Below, one piece after another: positions 1 through 25,041 of a stretch of 32,000 nucleotides of DNA. The position numbers and the translations under genes were made by a program. The stretch is from Candidatus Brocadia sp. (lineage in GTDB: Bacteria; Planctomycetota; Brocadiia; Brocadiales; Brocadiaceae): the NCBI GenBank assembly GCA_021650915.1, contig CP091279.1, forward strand, positions 2,820,001-2,852,000, written 5' to 3'. Positions within the stretch are counted from its first letter, which is position 1; every line of letters begins with the position of its first letter. The notes below the pieces were generated by a model. It had not been told where the DNA came from. It made no database searches and saw only the letters and a list, made by a program, of their open reading frames with translations.

Positions 1-265
1 TGCCCTACTACGTCCTCAAACGTTTGGGGACGATATCGGCGTGCTAACACAACATATGACATGAGCTTTTACCTCGATAAGCGCCTATACCAAACCTTCT
101 CTGTATTATTATACTTTTTCGTATGCTTCATATCAATATGCATTCCTTCGTCACGGCAAACAGAGCAGAAAGCGCGGCTTAAACGCGTCGTGACAGAGAT
201 TGAGCAAAAGGCCGTGCACTTTTTTTCGTTCCCATTCCCATGGGTTTGCCTATGCAGTAGGCTCA

Positions 266-364
266 GACCAGACTGACTCACGGCACATAAGGATATATGC
301 TTATGGCTGCTTGCTTCCGCACCTGACCAGGTTCGCACAATCTCTTATTGCATGAGGTCCGGCC
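266..364 (-). ncRNA. ffs: Signal recognition particle RNA (small 4.5S-type); boundaries approximate
   Basis: The minus-strand read of 305-331 is CCUGGUCAGGUGC-GGAA-GCAAGCAGCC. This is the SRP helix 8 / domain IV signature (E. coli 4.5S: CCAGGUCAGGUCC-GGAA-GGAAGCAGCC). It has the GGAA tetraloop (plus-strand ttcc 315-318), the conserved AGG/AGCA symmetric loop, and a compensatory UCC/GGA -> UGC/GCA change in the closing stem. The flanking arms pair by eye (GAUUGUGC with GCAUAUAUC, GCAAUAAG with CUUAUGUGC, GACCUCA with UGAGUC), giving one hairpin of about 100 nt. No covariance model was run. Confidence 0.7.
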
Positions 365-493
365 TTCATCACCCCTTACATCGGCAAGGCTCATGATCTG
401 TGGGTCCTCGAAAAAGCGATTGATCCTGCTATAGCGGGTTGCAGGTTACAAGGAACCGCTAGCTCCCCATCTAGCACGGCCGATTTTATAAAC

Positions 494-586
494 TGGCGGA
501 GAGGGCGGGAGTCGAACCCGCGATACCGATTTTGTCGGTATACGCGCTTTCCAAGCGCGCTCATTCGGCCTCTCTGACACCTCTCC
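494..586 (-). tRNA. tRNA-Ser (anticodon GGA), class II with long variable arm, CCA encoded
   Basis: The reverse complement reads GGAGAGGUGUCAGAGAGGCCGAAUGAGCGCGCUUGGAAAGCGCGUAUACCGACAAAAUCGGUAUCGCGGGUUCGACUCCCGCCCUCUCCGCCA. It has a 7-bp acceptor stem, an anticodon stem CGCGC/GCGCG with loop UUGGAAA (anticodon GGA), a long extra arm, and a GGUUCGA T-loop. Confidence 0.95.
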
Positions 587-836: not shown

Positions 837-928
837 TGGCGGAGAGGGTGGGATTCGAACCCACGTCCCGCTGTTATGCGAGAAACGGTTTTCGAGACCG
901 TCCCGATCAACCACTCTGGCACCTCTCC
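837..928 (-). tRNA. tRNA-Ser (anticodon CGA), class II with long variable arm, CCA encoded
   Basis: The reverse complement reads GGAGAGGUGCCAGAGUGGUUGAUCGGGACGGUCUCGAAAACCGUUUCUCGCAUAACAGCGGGACGUGGGUUCGAAUCCCACCCUCUCCGCCA. The anticodon stem is ACGGU/ACCGU with loop CUCGAAA (anticodon CGA). It also has a long extra arm and a GGUUCGAAUCC T-arm. Confidence 0.95.
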
Positions 929-1469: not shown

Positions 1470-1543
1470 CGCGCCCAGGAGGATTTGAACCTCCAACCTC
1501 CGGATTCGTAGTCCGTGACTCTATCCAATTGAGCTATGGGCGC
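1470..1543 (-). tRNA. tRNA-Arg (anticodon ACG); CCA not encoded
   Basis: The reverse complement reads GCGCCCAUAGCUCAAUUGGAUAGAGUCACGGACUACGAAUCCGGAGGUUGGAGGUUCAAAUCCUCCUGGGCGCG. The acceptor stem is GCGCCCA/UGGGCGC, the anticodon loop is CUACGAA (ACG), and the T-arm is GGAGGUUCAAAUCCUCC. It closely resembles E. coli tRNA-Arg(ACG). Confidence 0.93.
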
Positions 1544-1745: not shown

Positions 1746-2465
1746 TCAAGACATAATCCCTTTGTCCTTAAAACTCACAAAACGCTCATTTCCGATGATA
1801 ATATGATCCAAAACCTTTATGCCAACAATATTTCCTGCCTCTAATAGCCGGTTCGTTATTTGGAGGTCTTCTTTACTGGGTTCCGGATCACCTGAAGGGT
1901 GATTATGGACAAAGACCACGGCGGCCGCAGATTCCTTAATTGCCGGATTGAACACCTCACGGGGGTGAACGATGCTTGAGGTAAGACTGCCTGCGGAGAT
2001 TTGCATCTCTTTGATAACGCGGTTTTTATTGTCAAGCAAAACAACCAAAAAGACTTCCTGTTTCTTTCCGCGCAAACGTTCGTGAAAATGGTCAAAGATG
2101 TCATTGCTGCATTTAAATTGCTGAAGGGGTTTTACCGAAATGGTAGAAAACCGTTTTGCAATTGCTAGTGACGCCTTGATTTGTGCTGCCCGCGCCGGAC
2201 CTATCCCTTTTATCTTGCACAATTCACCAACGGATGCCATGCTCAGCCTTCGGAAATCCCCATACTCGGAAAGAAGCTTTTGCGCTAAATCAACGGCGCT
2301 GTAATTGGTCGTGCCGTCACGAATGATGATTCCCAGAAGTTCCGCATCCGTCAGGTGTTCATCGCCGCTTTGGATAAGCCGTTCCCGTGGTCTCTCATGG
2401 GTAGGGAGTTGTTTTATTGTAGGACGTTTCTTGTCTTCCTTCATAACGGTACTGATCTGCCGCAT
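1746..2465 (-). CDS. radC: RadC-family JAB/MPN domain protein with N-terminal helix-hairpin-helix
   Basis: JAMM motif HNHPSGDPEPSKED, HhH segment LCKIKGIGPARAAQI, and N-terminal ERPRERL typical of RadC/YsxA. The start is ambiguous (MRQIS at 2465 or MKEDKK at 2444). Confidence 0.9.
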   Translation of the reverse strand: MRQISTVMKEDKKRPTIKQLPTHERPRERLIQSGDEHLTDAELLGIIIRDGTTNYSAVDLAQKLLSEYGDFRRLSMASVGELCKIKGIGPARAAQIKASLAIAKRFSTISVKPLQQFKCSNDIFDHFHERLRGKKQEVFLVVLLDNKNRVIKEMQISAGSLTSSIVHPREVFNPAIKESAAAVVFVHNHPSGDPEPSKEDLQITNRLLEAGNIVGIKVLDHIIIGNERFVSFKDKGIMS

Positions 2466-2657
2466 GAGGGGCTTGCCGGGATCATGAAAAGGTTATTTCC
2501 TTGCAGATCACCTCTCTGCACCGACAGATTATACTTCAGGAATTCCCCCTGTCAACAAAATGTCTTTGTGAACCCGTGGCCGAAAAAATATTTGATTAAA
2601 CGTCCTGCCTTGTTTATAGTACCATGGAGCGGAAAAAATTCTTTAGGAGATTTACCC

Positions 2658-3224
2658 ATGCACACCCCCGATTCGGTTATGCCTGAATTTCAGATGGCTA
2701 TGACGCCGCATCAGAATCTTGCTGATGTGTGCAATGTATTGATCAAAAAAGCGATAGAACTTGGCTGTGTGCAGGCGGCGGTTATTCATACCAACACCAT
2801 CAGTGTTGCTCGATGGGTCCAATTGAAATGCAAATACGGATGTGAAGCATACGGAAAAAAACTCACCTGTCCGCCCCACTCACCTTCGTTTGAAGAAATG
2901 AAAGAGATTCTCAGGGAATATACCCGGGCGCTGCTTCTCCGCGGACACCTGAGCTGGCAGATGCGGTATATCACGGCAGAAATCGAAAAGATGGCATTTT
3001 CCCTGGGCTTTTATAAAGCCTTTGGGCTGGGAGCAGGTCCTTGCAAATTATGCGAGGATTGCGATACCTCGCATGCCTGTGTTCGCACGACGGAAGCACG
3101 GCCTTCGATGGAGGCATGTGGTATCGACGTCTATCAAACGGTAAGAAACCATAATTTCAAAATTGAGACGCTGAAAAGCAAGGACGACGAAGTGAATATC
3201 TACGGTCTGATCTTACTGGAATAA
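2658..3224 (+). CDS. DUF2284-like predicted metal-binding protein (Cys-rich)
   Basis: The ORF track gives 2355..3224, but its first ~100 codons are antisense to radC. AGGAGA lies 7 nt upstream of the ATG at 2658. Cys motifs CKYGCEAYGKKLTCPP and CKLCEDC...C match my recollection of the DUF2284 family. Confidence 0.65.
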   Translation: MHTPDSVMPEFQMAMTPHQNLADVCNVLIKKAIELGCVQAAVIHTNTISVARWVQLKCKYGCEAYGKKLTCPPHSPSFEEMKEILREYTRALLLRGHLSWQMRYITAEIEKMAFSLGFYKAFGLGAGPCKLCEDCDTSHACVRTTEARPSMEACGIDVYQTVRNHNFKIETLKSKDDEVNIYGLILLE

Positions 3225-3242
3225 ATTTTCAAAGTTTATAAT

Positions 3243-3938
3243 TTGCTGAACAAATTACAAGCAACCTTAATGAAACAAAAATTAACCATCGCCTCATTGA
3301 TTAAAGAAGCAAAAGCATTTTGTGAACAGGAATCAAAATTTGATAATCGAGATCTATTTGGAATAACCGATGGTAAGGCTGTTGGCACATTCATAGAACA
3401 TAAATTCCAAGATTTCCTTTCTTCTAAATATGAATATATAATTGGTTCTTCAGCAAATGGAATTGATATGCCTTCCGAAGATTTAAATACTGATATAAAG
3501 GTAACATCTATCAAACAACCTCAATCTTCTTGTCCTTTCAGAAATGCAAGACAAAAAATATATGGTCTCGGATATAATTTATTGGTATTTGTCTATGATA
3601 AAAATGACGATCCAGTCACAAAGACAGCAAGGCTTAATTTTGTAAGTTGTTCATTTATTGACAAAAACAGAACTGCAGATTATCAAGTAACACGAACCAT
3701 CCGGCAAATGTTAGAAAATAATGCAAATGCCGACGATATTATTGCATATTTAACTGACAGAAATCTTCCCACCGACGAAATCACAATAAATCAACTGGCA
3801 GATGAGATATTACACACGAAACCAAAGCAAGGGTATTTAACGATATCGAATGCATTGCAATGGCGATTACAATATGGACGTATTGTAGAGCTAGTAGAAA
3901 ATGTAGATGGAATAATTCGCATAATCAGTAAAATATAA
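3243..3938 (+). CDS. Putative type II restriction endonuclease (PD-(D/E)XK fold candidate), family unassigned
   Basis: ORF in AT-rich DNA, ending 10 nt upstream of a DNA methyltransferase on the same strand. Candidate catalytic motif GIDMPSEDLNTDIKVTS (D ... D-x-K), preceded by a GK-x-x-G-x-x-x-E segment (TDGKAVGTFIEHKF) reminiscent of MutH/Sau3AI-type nucleases. The track start is TTG at 3243; ATG at 3270 (MKQKLT...) is an alternative. Confidence 0.5.
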   Translation: MLNKLQATLMKQKLTIASLIKEAKAFCEQESKFDNRDLFGITDGKAVGTFIEHKFQDFLSSKYEYIIGSSANGIDMPSEDLNTDIKVTSIKQPQSSCPFRNARQKIYGLGYNLLVFVYDKNDDPVTKTARLNFVSCSFIDKNRTADYQVTRTIRQMLENNANADDIIAYLTDRNLPTDEITINQLADEILHTKPKQGYLTISNALQWRLQYGRIVELVENVDGIIRIISKI

Positions 3939-3948
3939 ATATTATCAC

Positions 3949-5760
3949 ATGAAGACAGCCTTTCAACATGTCAATACTGTTACAATCAATTTCTTTAGAG
4001 AGAAAGTTGGTAGGATAACCGATTACCGAGAAGCAAACGAACTATTAATTCAGCTATCGGGCATTGATAGTTTTTTTAGAAACAAGGACGAATTTTTAAC
4101 TTTTTTGGATTTATTGAAACCGTGTTCGGTAGTTTGTGAGGGGATAGCCCGACGGGAATATGGAGATTTTCAAACACCTCTAGAATTGAGTAACACAATA
4201 TGTTCATATTTAGCTAGCGAAGACATATTACCAGATGTGATAATCGAACCAACATTCGGAAAAGGTTCCTTTATAATATCCGCTTTAAGACATTTTTCTC
4301 AAACAAAACGAATTTACGGAGTAGAAATTTACGAACCGTATTATTGGCTAACGAAGTTTCTCATACTTGAACTGTTCATCAACACACCAAATCTAAACAA
4401 ACCCAAAATCTTTCTTTACTGTGATGATATCTTTAATTTTGATTTTAGCTCAATCGAAAAATCAATTGAGACTCACAGTATTCTGGCATTGGGCAACCCG
4501 CCTTGGGTTACTAATTCAGAGTTGAGCACTTTAAATTCATCTAATCTTCCTGCAAAAAGCAATTTTAAGTTTTATAAGGGCTTTGAAGCTATCACCGGAA
4601 AGGGAAACTTTGACATCGGCGAGTACATTATTCTGATGATGTTCAAATTGTTTTCAAAATATTACGGGCATATGGCCATGTTAGCGAAGAACTCTGTTAT
4701 CAAGAATGTAATATACGATCTTCCCAAAATGAATTATAGAATTGGCGACATGGTTGCACTGAAGATCGATACAAAATATTTTTTTAACGCCGCAGTTGAA
4801 GCCTCGTTATTCAAATGCAGCTTTAAATCACGTAGTTCTTCTACGATTTGCAAAGTATCTTTGCTAAATTCTCCTCACTTAGTTGAAAATGAATTTGGCT
4901 GGGTAGGCAATAAATTTGTTTCCGATGTATCCCTTTATGAAAAACACAAAAAATTCGATGGAGTGTGCTCCTATATTTGGAGGCAGGGAGTTAAACACGA
5001 CTGCTCTAAAATTATGGAACTCGACATGGTAAATAACAAATATTTCAACGGATTCGAAGTGGAAGTAAACCTCGAAGACGATTTAGTCTACGGTTTAGTC
5101 AAAAGCTCAGACTTGCGCTTACCAGTTATAACAAAGCCACGAAAGTATGTTGTTATAACCCAAAAAAAAATTGGTGAGGGCACTTCTTATTTGCAGGATA
5201 AATTTCCAAATCTTTATAAATATTTATCTGAAAATGAGCAGTATTTTTTACAAAGAAAATCGAGTATTTATGTAGGCAAAGCGCCGTTTTCTATATTTGG
5301 TGTAGGAGATTATTCTTTCAAACCTTATAAAGTAGCAATATCGGGGTTATACAAACGTTCTACTTTTTCTTTAATTTTGCCTTACAAAGGTAAACCGATG
5401 ATGTTAGATGATACATGCTATTTTCTTGGGTTCGACTATATTTCTGAGGCAATAATAATCTGGGCAATTCTCAATAGCGAATATATCCAAAAGCTCCTTA
5501 CGGTAATCACATTTCTGGATTCAAAACGTCCTTACACAAAAGAAGTTCTAATGCGTCTTAGCCTTAATGAAGTGGCGGAGTATCTTACATTTGATCAAAT
5601 TAAAGACATTATAAAACTCTTACCTACAAACATGCCAATTTATCTAACGAAAAATGAATGGAATGAATTTCTTGCAAAAGACAAAAACAAAAGACTAAAG
5701 CCAAAACAGCTCGCATTATTTGAGACATTACACAATGTGAAACAGGGAGGCATCTTTTGA
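3949..5760 (+). CDS. N6-adenine DNA methyltransferase (gamma-class, Eco57I/TaqI-like with C-terminal target-recognition domain)
   Basis: Substrate-adjacent motif YGDFQTP, SAM-binding motif I IIEPTFGKGSFI, and catalytic motif IV LGNPPWV (NPPW). The motif I -> IV order and long C-terminal half resemble TaqI_C-type specificity domains. Confidence 0.85.
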   Translation: MKTAFQHVNTVTINFFREKVGRITDYREANELLIQLSGIDSFFRNKDEFLTFLDLLKPCSVVCEGIARREYGDFQTPLELSNTICSYLASEDILPDVIIEPTFGKGSFIISALRHFSQTKRIYGVEIYEPYYWLTKFLILELFINTPNLNKPKIFLYCDDIFNFDFSSIEKSIETHSILALGNPPWVTNSELSTLNSSNLPAKSNFKFYKGFEAITGKGNFDIGEYIILMMFKLFSKYYGHMAMLAKNSVIKNVIYDLPKMNYRIGDMVALKIDTKYFFNAAVEASLFKCSFKSRSSSTICKVSLLNSPHLVENEFGWVGNKFVSDVSLYEKHKKFDGVCSYIWRQGVKHDCSKIMELDMVNNKYFNGFEVEVNLEDDLVYGLVKSSDLRLPVITKPRKYVVITQKKIGEGTSYLQDKFPNLYKYLSENEQYFLQRKSSIYVGKAPFSIFGVGDYSFKPYKVAISGLYKRSTFSLILPYKGKPMMLDDTCYFLGFDYISEAIIIWAILNSEYIQKLLTVITFLDSKRPYTKEVLMRLSLNEVAEYLTFDQIKDIIKLLPTNMPIYLTKNEWNEFLAKDKNKRLKPKQLALFETLHNVKQGGIF

Positions 5761-5855
5761 TGGTATCTATTCTTGTAGAAATGGAAATTTCCTACCAACA
5801 AGTATCGTATCCTACTCATACATAAATTCCAGAACATTTTAGTAAGGGGAAAAAC

Positions 5856-10440: not shown

Positions 10441-11124
10441 TTGATAATAGCGATTGATGGTCCCGCTGGTTCCGGGAAAAGCACCATCGCCAGGATGCTG
10501 GCAAGGCGGCTGGGCTTTAACTATCTCGATACGGGAGCTATGTATCGGGCGCTTACGTGGAAGGCGTTACAGGACGGAGCAGACTTAACAGATGCAAACG
10601 CCTTATGCCAGCTGATGGACCAAACCGCCATCGAATTTCGGGGTAAGAACGATGGTATGCAAATATGGGTTGATGGGGTTAATGTAACGGAAAAAATCCG
10701 CGCACCCTCTGTAACCAACAACGTTCATTATATATCGAACGCATCCAGTGTCCGGCACCGTATGGTAAAACTCCAGCAAATGTTTGCGTCCGGAGGGAAT
10801 GTCATTGCAGAAGGGAGGGATATGGGTACCGTTGTCTTTCCGCATGCAGACAAGAAATTTTTTTTAGATGCTGAAATTGAGGAGCGTGCCCGGAGGCGGC
10901 ATGACGAGATGCGTCTGCCGGATGGCGAAATTTCGTATGCCGATGTGATGAAAGATATAGAAATACGTGACAAGCGGGATACGACGAGGGATAACTCTCC
11001 CCTCAGAAAGAGTGATGATGCAATTTACCTGAATACTACAAAAATGTCGATTGAAGAAGTGGTCGCTCGGATATTCGAAGAACTTGAGCCAGTGGTCAAA
11101 AAACTGGACGTTTATAAAGAGTGA
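10441..11124 (+). CDS. cmk: Cytidylate kinase
   Basis: TTG start. N-terminus IIAIDGPAGSGKSTIARMLA, YLDTGAMYRA and GRDMGTVVFP motifs, with the conserved cmk-rpsA gene order. Confidence 0.92.
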   Translation: MIIAIDGPAGSGKSTIARMLARRLGFNYLDTGAMYRALTWKALQDGADLTDANALCQLMDQTAIEFRGKNDGMQIWVDGVNVTEKIRAPSVTNNVHYISNASSVRHRMVKLQQMFASGGNVIAEGRDMGTVVFPHADKKFFLDAEIEERARRRHDEMRLPDGEISYADVMKDIEIRDKRDTTRDNSPLRKSDDAIYLNTTKMSIEEVVARIFEELEPVVKKLDVYKE

Positions 11125-11189
11125 GTAAACGTAATTTATTTTAAAAACCTTTTATTTTTTTCATTTTATTTCGGAGAAATCATCAAATT

Positions 11190-12941
11190 ATGGATCGGGA
11201 TATTTTAAAAGAGTACAATGTAAATTTAGCCGATATTGAGCGTGAGGTTGAAGCTATCGTTGGAAGCGAGGATACCAAAAAAAAGATAGAATCTACCTAC
11301 TATGATTCTATTCAGAATTTTGAGGTAGGCTCGGTTCTTAAGGGGCGTATTCTTAGTGCTCTTGGTGATAACATTGTCATAGACTGCGGATATAAATCCG
11401 AAGGTATGATACCCAAGCTTGAATTCGATGATCCTTCCGAGATAAAAATAGGTGAAGATGTTGAGGTCCTGTTGGAAGCAGTAGAGGACGATTCAGGACT
11501 TATTAAATTATCGAAGCGGAAAGCAGACCGCATTCGTGGCTGGGAAAGGGTTATTGCAAAATATAAAGAGGGCGATATCATCACTGGTCGGGTGACGAGA
11601 AAAATTAAAGGAGGCCTGCTCGTCGATATGGGGGTGCCAATATTTTTGCCTGCTTCCCAGATTGACGTAAAGCCGCCAGGCGATATTTCTCAATATATTG
11701 GACAGGAAGTCACCTGCCGAATACTAAAAATCGATGAGACTCGGCAAAATATTGTTGTTTCCAGAAGAAAGCTTATTGAGGAAGACCGCGACAAAAAGAA
11801 ACAAGGCCTGCTGTCGGAAATTGCTATCGGGCAGATCAGGAAAGGCGTGGTGAAAAATATCGCCGACTTTGGTGCATTCATTGATTTGGGTGGTCTGGAT
11901 GGACTTCTTCACATTACGGATATGAGTTGGGGAAGAATAAGCCATCCATCGGAAGTGCTTGCTATTGATGATGAGGTTGAGGTAATGATACTTGACATCG
12001 ACAAGGAAAAGGAAAAGGTCGCTCTTGGGTTAAAACAAAAGTCACCAAACCCGTGGTTACTCATCGAGGAAAAATACCCCGTTGGCTCCAAGGTAAAGGG
12101 CCAAGTCGTCAATATTATGTCGTATGGTGCATTTGTAAAACTGGAAACAGGTATCGAAGGTCTTGTGCATATTTCGGAGATGTCCTGGACCCGTCGCATT
12201 AACCACCCATCAGAAATGGTGGCGATCGGAGACATGGTAGAAGTTGTCGTTCTCAAAATTGATAAGGAAAAAGAAGAAATCTCACTCAGTATGAAACAGA
12301 CGGAAGTTAATCCGTGGACGGTTATTGAAGAAAAATATCCCGCAGGAACAAGAATCAAGGGACGCGTCCGGAACCTGACCAATTATGGCGCTTTCATTGA
12401 GATCGAAGAAGGGGTGGACGGCTTGCTCCATATTTCTGACATGTCGTGGGCAAAGAAGGTTGGACATCCTTCAGAAATTGTTAAAAAGGGAGATAAAATT
12501 GAAGCCGTGGTGCTTTCTGTTGACCGGGAAAAAAAGAGAGTTGCCTTGGGTCTCAAACAACTCTCCGATGATCCATGGGTAAAAGAGATTCCTGAAAAAT
12601 TTAAAGTAGGCGATGTCGTCTCCGGCAAGGTCACGAAATTGACCAACTTTGGCGCATTTCTTGAGCTTGGGAAAGGGATTGAAGGGCTGTTGCATATCTC
12701 GGAATTATCCAATGAAAAGGTGAATAATCCCGCGGATGTTGTCAATATTGGTGATGATCTGGAAGTAAGAGTTATTCGCATTGAACCGGAGGCAAGAAAG
12801 ATCGGGTTGAGCCTGAAAAAAATGATTGATGCAGAAGGGAAAAGTGCTGCGTCGTTGTCAAATGAAGATTCTCAAAAGCAGATAAACGGTGGTACTGTGA
12901 TTCGTGAAGGACAGGATTCTGACGCTGCAAGCGTATCGTGA
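11190..12941 (+). CDS. rpsA: 30S ribosomal protein S1 (six S1 domains)
   Basis: Repeated S1 OB-fold units (G.V..I..FGAF(I/V).L..G.(D/E)GLLHIS(D/E)(M/L)S) recur six times. GGAGAAAT lies upstream of the ATG. Confidence 0.95.
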   Translation: MDRDILKEYNVNLADIEREVEAIVGSEDTKKKIESTYYDSIQNFEVGSVLKGRILSALGDNIVIDCGYKSEGMIPKLEFDDPSEIKIGEDVEVLLEAVEDDSGLIKLSKRKADRIRGWERVIAKYKEGDIITGRVTRKIKGGLLVDMGVPIFLPASQIDVKPPGDISQYIGQEVTCRILKIDETRQNIVVSRRKLIEEDRDKKKQGLLSEIAIGQIRKGVVKNIADFGAFIDLGGLDGLLHITDMSWGRISHPSEVLAIDDEVEVMILDIDKEKEKVALGLKQKSPNPWLLIEEKYPVGSKVKGQVVNIMSYGAFVKLETGIEGLVHISEMSWTRRINHPSEMVAIGDMVEVVVLKIDKEKEEISLSMKQTEVNPWTVIEEKYPAGTRIKGRVRNLTNYGAFIEIEEGVDGLLHISDMSWAKKVGHPSEIVKKGDKIEAVVLSVDREKKRVALGLKQLSDDPWVKEIPEKFKVGDVVSGKVTKLTNFGAFLELGKGIEGLLHISELSNEKVNNPADVVNIGDDLEVRVIRIEPEARKIGLSLKKMIDAEGKSAASLSNEDSQKQINGGTVIREGQDSDAASVS

Positions 12942-13788: not shown

Positions 13789-14304
13789 ATGAATGAATTA
13801 AAAAATTTAGTGCGTGATGTACCAGATTTCCCTAAAAAGGGTATTATCTTTAAAGATATTATGCCTCTTTTGCAAAATCCGAAAGGATTAAGAAAGGCCG
13901 TTGAAATCATTTCTGGCCATTATAAAAATGAGAAAGTTGACATTGTTGTTGGCGCCGAAGCGCGGGGTTTTATTCTGGCGCCTACGATTGCTTTTGCGCT
14001 GGGAGCTGGATTTACCCCTATCAGAAAGCCCGGTAAACTTCCTTACGAAAAGATCAGCATGAGCTATGCCCTCGAATATGGTACTGATGTGCTCGAAATA
14101 CACAAGGATGGAATCAGCAAGGGACAGCAGGTGCTCATGGTAGATGATTTATTAGCTACCGGCGGAACTATGTCCGCATGCTGCAAGCTGGTTGAATCGC
14201 TTGGTGGGAGAATCGTAGGCTGTGCCTTTCTGGTTGAACTATCATTTCTTGATGGCAAAAAAAACCTCACACCCTACGATATCTTTTCTGTCATAAAATA
14301 CTAA
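13789..14304 (+). CDS. apt: Adenine phosphoribosyltransferase
   Basis: FPKKGIIFKDI N-terminus, PRPP-binding loop VLMVDDLLATGGT, and typical length of 171 aa. It starts 3 nt after the sigma-factor stop. Confidence 0.92.
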   Translation: MNELKNLVRDVPDFPKKGIIFKDIMPLLQNPKGLRKAVEIISGHYKNEKVDIVVGAEARGFILAPTIAFALGAGFTPIRKPGKLPYEKISMSYALEYGTDVLEIHKDGISKGQQVLMVDDLLATGGTMSACCKLVESLGGRIVGCAFLVELSFLDGKKNLTPYDIFSVIKY

Positions 14305-14365
14305 AATATACTTCCGCCTGTTATTCCTTTTCTCGTGACCGGAAGATACAGACAGCGTTCTATGA

Positions 14366-14629
14366 TTATTTCAGGGTTATTTCAATCGATTCGCCATCCT
14401 TCCAAATTTGATTGAATACTTTCACGTTCTTCAGCGCGTCCATTACCTGTTTTTCAATCCACATTATCACATCGCTATAGCCACAACTGAAACATTTTAC
14501 CATCCAGGGCATCTTGAGGGTTTTTACCATAACTGAAACCGCTTCTCCGTCACAGTTTGGACATTTAACAGAGGAAATTACGGCCTTATACTTTTCTCCG
14601 ACTTCCTTATTTGAAAAAGATTCTGACAT
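14366..14629 (-). CDS. Small zinc-ribbon protein (hypothetical)
   Basis: Two CxxC pairs (CPNCDG ... CFSCG). AAGGAG lies 8 nt upstream of the ATG at 14627-14629. The longer track ORF (to 14707) adds a hydrophobic leader with no RBS. Confidence 0.45.
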   Translation of the reverse strand: MSESFSNKEVGEKYKAVISSVKCPNCDGEAVSVMVKTLKMPWMVKCFSCGYSDVIMWIEKQVMDALKNVKVFNQIWKDGESIEITLK

Positions 14630-14913
14630 TATAGCGCTCCTTAAGAAGGGTTGTAGCATATCAAATTCATGTAATACACAACAAACTACACCAAAGAAAA
14701 GTTTCACGCAGTCAGCATTTCATGGTTTTTCGTTGGGAGTTTTCTGACTCAAACACAAAAAGCATTGAGTCGTCGATCTCTTACCAGTAAATTCCTCTGA
14801 CATAATAAAAATAATCTAACTTGTTTGCGTATTGATTTCAAGTAATTTGTTTGAATTAATTAACTAAAAATCCGTGATCTTTTTTCATCGTGCGAACATT
14901 CGTTAACACTTCT

Positions 14914-15429
14914 TCATTGTTTCAACATCTTTAATACCTTTTCCGGCAAGGGCTCTCTGTTTTTATAATTTATCGTTATGAGCGTAACGTCCTTGCGTTT
15001 TTTAATTTCTTCGGTAAAGGTATCCCCGCTTTCTTTTATCGTACAAAGAAGGGCTTTATCACTGTTGAGGATTTTTTCCAGCAATTCTCTGAATTTTTGT
15101 GAAAAGAGTTCCATCGTTCCAATTTCGTCGACTACGACAACTGACTTGCATCTCATAGCATCTTCCAGCGCTGGTATAGCAATTTTTTCAAAGGAATCGA
15201 GGTCGACCCGATATTTACCGACTTTATAATTGCTGTTGCACTCAACATGCGCCAGAATGCCGTCTCTTCCATCCAGCGTAACGATCCTAAAGCCCACACG
15301 TCTGTCCATTACACGAATTTCCTCAGTAAAAAAGCCTCCTGCGTCCATTCCCACCAGCGGGAGTATCTTTTTGATTACCGACGTCTTTCCTATACCGGGT
15401 TTACCAGTTAATAAAATGTGCCTTTTCAT
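14914..15429 (-). CDS. THEP1/COG1618-type nucleoside-triphosphatase
   Basis: Walker A LLTGKPGIGKTS, Walker B VVVVDEIGTMEL, and a ~170-aa size with motif spacing typical of the THEP1 NTPase family. Confidence 0.75.
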   Translation of the reverse strand: MKRHILLTGKPGIGKTSVIKKILPLVGMDAGGFFTEEIRVMDRRVGFRIVTLDGRDGILAHVECNSNYKVGKYRVDLDSFEKIAIPALEDAMRCKSVVVVDEIGTMELFSQKFRELLEKILNSDKALLCTIKESGDTFTEEIKKRKDVTLITINYKNREPLPEKVLKMLKQ

Positions 15430-24207: not shown

Positions 24208-24322
24208 AATGCAATCTCTTGTTAATTATCGTAGGGATGAATAAAAATAGATAGCTTCGGTAAATCTACGTAAATGATATTTCAAAGTCAAGCGGAAAAA
24301 GTCCTTGTGCTGTTGCTATTTT

Positions 24323-24354
24323 GAAATATTGTAACACTTTAGTTTTTTGAAAAA
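24323..24354. repeat. MITE left end: 8-bp TSD GAAATATT (24323-24330) plus 24-bp TIR GTAACACTTTAGTTTTTTGAAAAA (24331-24354)
   Basis: Read directly. The TIR is the exact reverse complement of 24458-24481, and the octamer is repeated directly at 24482-24489. Confidence 0.85.
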
Positions 24355-24481
24355 GTAGGGGCGAAGCATTTGCCATCTTGGGGTGTGAATACATTTATAC
24401 CAATTTATGGCAAATGCTTCGCCCTTACACCGTGCGGCAACATCGTTATTATGGTAATTTTTCAAAAAACTAAAGTGTTAC
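24331..24481. mobile_element. 151-bp non-autonomous element (MITE) with IS66-like GTAA termini
   Basis: Perfect 24-bp terminal inverted repeats, an 8-bp direct TSD, no coding capacity, and an internal second hairpin (24359-24375 pairs with 24408-24424). Confidence 0.75.
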
Positions 24482-24489
24482 GAAATATT
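24458..24489. repeat. MITE right end: 24-bp TIR (24458-24481) plus 8-bp TSD GAAATATT (24482-24489)
   Basis: Read directly. See the left-end entry. Confidence 0.85.
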
Positions 24490-24613
24490 AATTGTTACAA
24501 AGTGACCTCAGGAATTTGAAAGAAGATTGATATTTCCGGTTGTATGTGATACATTGAGGATCAATATATTGTGTTTTAGAGATGAAAAACAGGTATGAAA
24601 GGAGACGCACATA

Positions 24614-24817
24614 ATGAATCTAACAGAAGCGATTGATATGGTAGCAAAAGACGAACGGGATCTGCAGTTAAAATACACGAAAGTCGCCGATGAGGAAACT
24701 GACCCATTCGTAAAGGCTTTTTTACACAGAATCGTTAAAGATGCAATAAAACATGAAAAGAAGATATATAAGAAATATGAAAAGGTATTGGCTACCTTAA
24801 ACAAGAAGACGTATTAA
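24614..24817 (+). CDS. Small helical hypothetical protein (67 aa)
   Basis: AAAGGAGA lies 8 nt upstream of the ATG. The composition is a charged two-helix type. The opposite-strand ORF 24508..24804 looks non-genic. No family was recognised with confidence. Confidence 0.5.
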   Translation: MNLTEAIDMVAKDERDLQLKYTKVADEETDPFVKAFLHRIVKDAIKHEKKIYKKYEKVLATLNKKTY

Positions 24818-25041
24818 ACTCTGCCTGCAGCCATGAAACAAAAACCTCCAGTACCGTATCAGATATTTCTCCTGAATCTTTTTCTTCCTGCTATCGTTCA
24901 TACTTGCTTCTGTATGTCCTTTTTACAAGGGCTTTTTTGATTATGCGTTTGCTGCTCCGGAGAGCAGAGCGAGAGCCCTTGTTATAAACGAGGAAATGGA
25001 AGCGTGTTTTCTGCGAGGAATAAAACCGAGAAAGGGATATG

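Follow-up and report, generated by a model that had tools for sequence, protein, structure and literature searches.

The type II restriction-modification (R-M) system NspV of Nostoc sp. PCC 7524 consists of a biochemically defined restriction endonuclease (REase) of 220 aa, R.NspV, and a 480-aa DNA methyltransferase (MTase) encoded directly downstream. NspV cuts TT^CGAA, as does BstBI, with AsuII, Csp45I, SfuI and Bsp119I as further isoschizomers. The recognition site of NspV is documented as TTCGAA (PMC2779907), and most of the papers found on NspV merely employ it as a cloning site. In Xylella fastidiosa, an NspV methylase and restriction enzyme (PD1667-PD1668) are annotated on the prophage-like region xpd8 (PMC2605562), and this NspV-homologous type II pair is patchily distributed among strains and has been tied to the single-molecule real-time (SMRT) sequencing motif TTCGA6mA (bioRxiv 10.1101/2022.09.01.506293). 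Here we describe an AT-rich two-gene cassette within a 32,000-nucleotide stretch of a Candidatus Brocadia sp. genome (CP091279.1, positions 2,820,001 to 2,852,000; hereafter the window). The two genes very probably constitute an intact, ordinary and already catalogued NspV-family type II R-M system, both proteins having already been annotated in GenBank.

The Brocadia cassette closely follows the Nostoc arrangement. Its REase is of nearly the same length as R.NspV, co-linear with and 55% identical to it, and bears the same PF27258 label. The R-then-M gene order is the same, and the Nostoc MTase is homologous throughout to the core of the Brocadia MTase. The latter is a longer protein of 603 aa, with ~66 extra residues at the N-terminus and ~57 at the C-terminus, including a QLALF motif. 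A gap of 10 nt separates the Brocadia R and M genes, compared to a 4-nt overlap in Nostoc, Aeromonas and Klebsiella. Pairs with the same R-then-M architecture are found on plasmids of Aeromonas (pAER-e58e), Klebsiella (pmS1O1-GES24), Lactococcus garvieae, Lactiplantibacillus plantarum and Nostoc flagelliforme (pNFSY05). These are AT-richer than the carrier in every case, with REases 50-61% and MTases 34-43% identical to those of Brocadia, and their MTases are short-form (470-520 aa), unlike the long-form Brocadia enzyme. The Lactococcus garvieae plasmid has a helix-turn-helix (HTH) regulator gene directly upstream of R (L002 3441-3950), likely encoding a controller (C) protein, whereas the Brocadia, Nostoc and Aeromonas versions lack this gene. 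A further contrast is with the Xylella pair, which according to its published description is prophage-associated; the Brocadia cassette has no surrounding phage or recombinase genes. The layout of the cassette is as follows.

3222-3227, plus strand: left junction TAAATT, first copy of a 6-bp repeat, holding the TAA with which the intact DUF2284 gene ends
3228-3269, plus strand: AT-rich 5' leader of 42 nt, without recognisable promoter
3270-3938, plus strand: NspV-family type II REase gene, 222 aa, assigned by family models and prototype homology
3396-3398, 3465-3467, 3492-3494 and 3498-3500, within the REase gene: codons of the proposed (predicted) catalytic residues E43, D66, D75 and K77, respectively
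3939-3948, plus strand: R-M spacer of 10 nt, ATATTATCAC
3949-5760, plus strand: cognate gamma-type N6-adenine MTase gene, 603 aa, assigned by PADLOC, Pfam N6_Mtase and Nostoc homology
5707-5721, plus strand: codons of Q587-L-A-L-F591, a QxSLF motif 12 residues before the MTase C-terminus and a candidate beta-clamp-binding element
5761-5821, plus strand: AT-rich 3' cassette tail, common to other cassette-bearing Brocadia and to the B. sapporoensis remnant
5822-5827, plus strand: right junction with the second TAAATT copy, followed by ~12 extra nt, the native ribosome-binding site (RBS) region of the phasin-like gene and its ATG (5856)

The open reading frame (ORF) check returned two co-directional ORFs, 3243-3938 (231 aa from a TTG) and 3949-5760 (603 aa), both on the plus strand. 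An initial reading of the DNA made from its letters (hereafter the sequence-only reading) had accordingly given the upstream protein as 231 aa. Every homologue, including a 100% identical NCBI/GenBank protein, begins with MKQK, and hence the true start is placed at the ATG at 3270, which corrects the length to 222 aa. This protein is matched by the NCBIfam equivalog model NF052465 (type II R-M system restriction endonuclease) with an E-value of 2.8e-104 and a score of 346.8 bits (cutoff 290), the alignment spanning the whole profile (positions 1-209 of 209). It is furthermore matched by the PADLOC model REase_II (E 7.5e-89), and the Pfam label PF27258 'NspV' has been precomputed on the identical protein as well as on thousands of relatives. 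The prototype was reached by using a Nostoc plasmid homologue as query, which retrieved P0568, 'NspV endonuclease [Nostoc sp. PCC 7524]'; P0501 corresponds to Nos7524_1225, with the UniRef name 'Type II restriction enzyme NspV'. The Brocadia REase and P0568 align end to end (214 of 222 aa, 55% identity, 71% positives, E 7e-88). These alignments place the upstream protein, over its full length, in the curated NspV type II REase family, contradicting the sequence-only reading that it was unclassified and matched no restriction enzyme family. The exact protein already carries the GenBank annotation 'restriction endonuclease'.

The sequence-only reading had proposed either a type II R-M system or an MTase-linked effector of a new family, and of these the first option stands. 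An effector distinct from classical REases would fit the lack of any match in the Pfam-A set searched, the lack of a sequence-level relative in the PDB and the weakness of the structural neighbours described below. However, our Pfam-A search of the REase came back empty because PF27258 was missing from the set used. Curated family models in three libraries and direct homology to the biochemically defined NspV argue for an REase, and the new-family effector, refuted by NF052465, PF27258 and the prototype alignment, is considered extremely unlikely.

Conserved blocks in the REase family alignment are TDGKxxGTxIE, GID(F/L)P, DIKxTS, PQSS, QKxxGLGY, RTAD and ISNALQWRL. None of the residues E43, D66, D75 and K77 varies among 47 close homologues, and in 30 diverse homologues K77 is conserved to at least 90%; a few divergent members lack D66. 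An AlphaFold2 (AF2) model generated from the 47 close homologues (75-95% identity) was unusable, with a predicted local distance difference test score (pLDDT) of 64.9 that fell below 50 over the catalytic core. It was replaced by a model from 30 diverse sequences, with pLDDT 95.4 and a predicted template modelling score (pTM) of 0.91. The secondary structure of the latter (helix 35-51, short strand 65-67, strand 74-80) agrees with a helix-borne Glu followed by D...(D/E)xK on consecutive strands. The E43, D66 and D75-I-K77 arrangement with its preceding helix is that expected of a PD-(D/E)XK nuclease, and matches the D...DxK core that had been guessed from the letters.

Foldseek comparison of the AF2 model to the PDB, a check that had been suggested for the upstream protein, agrees with this in kind: the top 33 matches are all PD-(D/E)XK enzymes, including the REases SfiI, MvaI, HincII, EcoRV and BcnI and the mismatch-repair nuclease MutH. 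The top structural neighbours are without exception PD-(D/E)XK enzymes of the EcoRV/HincII/SfiI/MvaI type, with TM-scores of 0.2-0.4 and sequence identities of ~8-16%, a relationship not detectable at the level of sequence. The closeness of the match counts on the other side, as scores are weak (best E 9.5e-3, TM 0.40), and no meaningful relative emerged when PDB sequences were searched with the REase or its profile. The NspV family has no close solved structure.

The downstream protein contains the motifs of a gamma-class MTase in the corresponding order, with motif X GDFQTP (aa 72-77), motif I EPTFGKGSF (aa 100-108, DNA 4246-4272) and motif IV NPPW (aa 183-186, DNA 4495-4506), followed by a conserved target-recognition half (~aa 300-546). 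PADLOC MTase_II matches the protein with E 3.9e-124, while Pfam N6_Mtase gives a weak pass (27 bits against a cutoff of 20.4). An exact match is KKO20192.1 / A0A0M2UWI5 of Ca. Brocadia fulgida, the species to which the host is assigned. By its motifs and family matches the gene thus encodes a gamma-type N6-adenine DNA MTase, in line with the sequence-only reading. The accompanying description of the C-terminal half as TaqI_C-like could not be confirmed: Pfam TaqI_C did not match at E<=1, nor was M.TaqI recovered when the MTase family profile was run against PDB sequences (E<=1). A single related signal was seen, PADLOC aligning aa 370-518 with the C-terminal portion of type IIG enzymes (E 3.5e-15). 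Alignment with the 480-aa protein encoded downstream of nspVR in Nostoc PCC 7524 gives 38% identity over 483 aa (E 1e-107). The catalytic and target-recognition halves are similarly conserved (41% and 36%, respectively) and hence there is no sign of a domain swap.

The N-terminal extension of the MTase (window 3949-4146, aa 1-66; ~62-66 aa), with the pattern AN...GI..FF, is specific to a subfamily. It is conserved in homologues from Planctomycetota, Nitrospirota, Bacteroidota and Marinimicrobia, has no counterpart in the prototype M.NspV, and is covered by no family match. The C-terminal extension (aa 547-603) is likewise subfamily-specific.

As in type II (IIP) systems, the REase and MTase of the cassette are encoded by two separate small genes, neither a specificity subunit nor an ATPase/helicase or translocase domain is present, and domain searches of both proteins returned nothing beyond the REase and MTase families. 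The adjacent co-oriented MTase is homologous to the partner of the prototype, and the same pairing is present on the five plasmids. We propose that the REase is a small Mg2+-dependent enzyme of the PD-(D/E)XK type, with E43, D66 and D75-x-K77 as its putative active site, which as a homodimer would most likely recognise the palindrome TTCGAA and cut it as TT^CGAA. The S-adenosylmethionine (SAM)-dependent MTase would most likely generate TTCGA(m6)A on both strands, protecting host DNA, while unmethylated incoming phage or plasmid DNA would be cleaved. The R and M genes are probably co-transcribed, R first, without a controller protein. A promoter/terminator scan of the cassette gave no signal above shuffled controls, which is a point against the overall reading. 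The 5' leader is dispensable or variable, as the corresponding leader in the distant lineage L015 is only 17 nt long.

The sequence-only reading had regarded the specificity as unknown, which is too pessimistic given that the family expectation is TTCGAA; TTCGA(m6)A methylation and TTCGAA cleavage are likely for the Brocadia pair. Confidence in this site is limited by the modest identity to the prototype (55% for R, 38% for M), and TTCGAA is not depleted. The window contains 8 TTCGAA sites compared to 8.6 expected (observed/expected 0.93), one of them inside the MTase gene itself (5053), and the pooled cassette-bearing loci contain 15 compared to 18.3 expected, with cassette-free loci likewise undepleted. 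This is unlike Microcystis, where TTCGAA is very rare (PMC2779907). The lack of avoidance fits a recent arrival of the system, and yields no positive support for the specificity.

These same observations could be explained if the pair is of the NspV family, but the deep-branching Brocadia/Nitrospirota subclade with long-form MTases recognises a site other than TTCGAA. In addition to the modest identity to the prototype and the undepleted TTCGAA counts, the extra N- and C-terminal segments of this MTase subfamily would be compatible with such a change. In contrast, both proteins are homologous to the prototype over their full length and co-linear with it, with no swap of the target-recognition domain, and the REase passes an NCBIfam model of the 'equivalog' grade. 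The REase family is also unusually uniform, with 75-84% identity across phyla within the subclade (top 120 matches), and a distant proteobacterial NspV homologue still yields TTCGA6mA. We therefore consider an altered site unlikely, and retain TTCGAA as the expected target.

The REase is better conserved than the MTase, both relative to the prototype (55% versus 38%) and within the top 120 matches (75-84% versus 51-68%). The usual pattern in type II systems is the reverse.

Both genes are under purifying selection, with ratios of nonsynonymous to synonymous substitution (dN/dS) of 0.06-0.14 overall, 0.06-0.12 for the REase and 0.11-0.14 for the MTase. This bears on the possibility that the cassette is a decaying relic, with an inactive REase and an effectively orphan MTase. 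R-M systems often degrade, decay has occurred at the same locus in B. sapporoensis, and the lack of TTCGAA avoidance is in keeping with it. However, both ORFs in the window are full-length and retain all family-conserved residues, the REase dN/dS is low, and the identical protein recurs in many independent assemblies. A relic is thus very unlikely, and an intact system is favoured.

The cassette is clearly distinct in composition from its surroundings. Nothing but these two genes lies between the DUF2284 gene (stop 3224) and the phasin-like gene (start 5856), as had been noted from the letters. The GC content of 3228-5821 is 0.339, compared to 0.452 for the remaining window. Across 485 windows of the same length elsewhere in the window, GC content has a minimum of 0.405 and a mean of 0.448 (standard deviation 0.022), placing the insert at z = -5.0, so that an AT-richness originally judged by eye is borne out by the GC profile. 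GC content at third codon positions (GC3) is 0.22 for the REase gene and 0.34 for the MTase gene, compared to 0.48-0.58 in flanking genes.

To place the insert in context, the orthologous locus was taken from 27 Brocadiaceae genomes via the flanking UbiB gene. At this site, 4 lineages carry the cassette, at least 10 genomes are empty and 1 retains a remnant. The same junction carries the cassette in L004 (R 96%, M 92% identity), B. carolinensis (L005) and the distant lineage GWA2_39_15 (L015; R 88%, M 82%). In L015 the junctions are tighter than those of the window, and UbiB identity falls to 79%. Several assemblies also carry the identical cassette in the same genomic context. In the empty sites, which include that of B. 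pituitae (UbiB 93% identical), the spacer between the DUF2284 and phasin-like genes is 23-28 nt and reads ...ctggaaTAAATTGATTAAGGAGG...atg, with the window sequence diverging directly after TAAATT. In B. sapporoensis, this spacer is 535 nt (L011 9121-9655) and contains a decayed cassette remnant, an erosion scar in which the region of the R stop and M start is recognisable over 201 nt (74% identity, E 6e-27); the right junction matches too. Many relatives lack the pair, hence it does not belong to a core gene set of native composition common to all relatives, an outcome that the sequence-only reading had named as counter to its view.

The deviant GC content (z = -5) together with the presence/absence polymorphism at the orthologous site supports horizontal acquisition of the cassette. 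The defence-island interpretation of the sequence-only reading is thus upheld by composition, empty sites, remnant and synonymous divergence (dS). The cassette dS between lineages is 0.28-0.81, which is 2-5x below the values for the neighbouring UbiB (0.69-2.33) in matched genome pairs and points to exchange after the lineages split. As a point on the opposite side, the lower cassette dS could partly reflect codon composition as opposed to a younger age. The closest REases from outside the Brocadiaceae, with ~82% identity, are from Nitrospirota and Thermodesulfovibrionia. Phages were rejected as the main vehicle, as a homologue was found in only 1 of 50,697 phage records.

Occupancy of the same intergenic site in lineages as distant as L015, and the B. 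sapporoensis remnant, which shows that loss by erosion occurs, could also be explained by an old, vertically inherited Brocadiaceae resident that has been lost many times. Several observations argue against such a history. The composition of the cassette is still far from that of the host (GC3 0.22-0.34 versus ~0.5), and its dS is well below that of UbiB. The junctions differ between the window and L015, while the empty sites, at least 10 and independent-looking, are perfectly clean. Furthermore, the close relative B. pituitae has no cassette whereas a distant lineage does. Vertical descent is therefore judged unlikely, with horizontal acquisition the preferred explanation.

The insertion seems not to have been driven by a recombinase of its own. 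No integrase or transposase gene was found near the insert, as the sequence-only reading had noted, and the nearest tRNA genes are ~1.7 kb away with RadC and DUF2284 genes intervening, an arrangement unlike that of an integrase- or transposase-borne island. Long repeats, direct or inverted, were not detected at the island edges in a repeat search, so the earlier statement that flanking repeats are lacking is nearly right; the sole exception is the 6-bp TAAATT at 3222-3227 and 5822-5827. Insertion would have occurred precisely between the DUF2284 stop codon and the phasin-like RBS, leaving both flanking genes intact, and the cassette would later have been exchanged, lost or eroded among Brocadiaceae lineages.

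TAAATT is present once in empty sites. It could represent a target-site duplication or insertion microhomology, although it is short enough for a chance occurrence. Two unrelated inserts occupy the same DUF2284-phasin site in other genomes. The first, of 511 nt (L017 9049-9559), contains several GC-rich hairpin-like palindromes such as CCCCACTTTCGTGGGG and CCCTCCCTTGATGGGAGGG, and the second is 136 nt long (L018 9535-9670). The site may be an insertion hot spot.

The cassette itself matters little, given that its family, prototype and likely site are known and GenBank annotation is in place. The locus does provide a clean natural series of empty, occupied and eroded states, illustrating an R-M pair without recombinase moving through one intergenic site. 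The predicted TTCGA(m6)A mark should separate anammox populations of the B. fulgida type from relatives without the cassette, for example B. pituitae, and could serve in methylation-based metagenome binning or in the choice of DNA preparation for anammox genetics.

The only unusual feature of the cassette is a possible clamp-binding tail on the MTase. A Q..[LMIV]F pattern is found at a fixed offset in 95 of 118 long-form MTase homologues (P0121-P0240), most commonly as QLSLF (19), QPSLF (16) or QYSLF (13), and as QLALF at aa 587-591 of 603 in the window MTase. The motif lies within 20 residues of the C-terminus in 93 of 96 cases. Information content at the five motif positions is 3.8, 1.4, 2.4, 3.8 and 3.9 bits, compared to ~1 bit in the surrounding variable linker. 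The motif is absent from the short-form M.NspV enzymes of Nostoc and Aeromonas. A bacterial beta-clamp-binding pentapeptide QL(S/D)LF has been described for proteins that carry it 'at their C-terminus', as has the PCNA-tethered Dnmt1 (PMC9690074). The MTase tail contains such a QL(S/D)LF-like pentapeptide near the C-terminus in poorly conserved surroundings, as seen for bacterial beta-sliding-clamp clients; the likeness to these and to Dnmt1-PCNA, a conserved clamp-type pentapeptide in a variable tail, is one of sequence resemblance only. Our literature search found no report of a clamp-binding motif in R-M methyltransferases.

We tentatively suggest that long-form NspV-type MTases are tethered to the replisome by this C-terminal motif, a proposal that we hold to be possible rather than probable. 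Intramolecular packing or contact between R and M would account for the motif equally well. If tethering does occur, newly replicated hemimethylated TTCGAA sites would regain full methylation immediately behind the fork, ahead of any cleavage by the cognate endonuclease, and the system would constitute a bacterial, R-M-borne analogue of Dnmt1-PCNA coupling. The clamp-like tail hence provides a testable hypothesis on the coupling of maintenance methylation to replication in some R-M systems.

Upstream of the cassette, an RNA gene cluster is located on the minus strand at 212-1543 with the following members.

212-479, minus strand: large signal recognition particle (SRP) RNA
494-586, minus strand: tRNA-Ser(GGA)
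837-928, minus strand: tRNA-Ser(CGA)
1470-1543, minus strand: tRNA-Arg(ACG)

The tRNA at 494-586 was called by ARAGORN and is missing from the Rfam gathering-threshold table. The start of the DUF2284 gene varies by assembly (2355-3224 / 2655-3224), the protein being called as 188 or 275 aa, with the longer form overlapping the divergent RadC gene. Elsewhere in the window, a stretch of ~830 nt without a long ORF (24208-25041) is also AT-rich (GC 0.35-0.38), with a glycosyltransferase gene on one side and a flavodiiron-like (ODP/flavodoxin) gene on the other; only small ORFs are found in it, such as 24614-24817 on the plus strand (67 aa). Milder low-GC patches (0.36-0.38) are seen at 14250-15250, near an NTPase_1 gene (14914-15429, minus strand), and at 11000-11500, at the junction of the cytidylate kinase and S1 protein genes.

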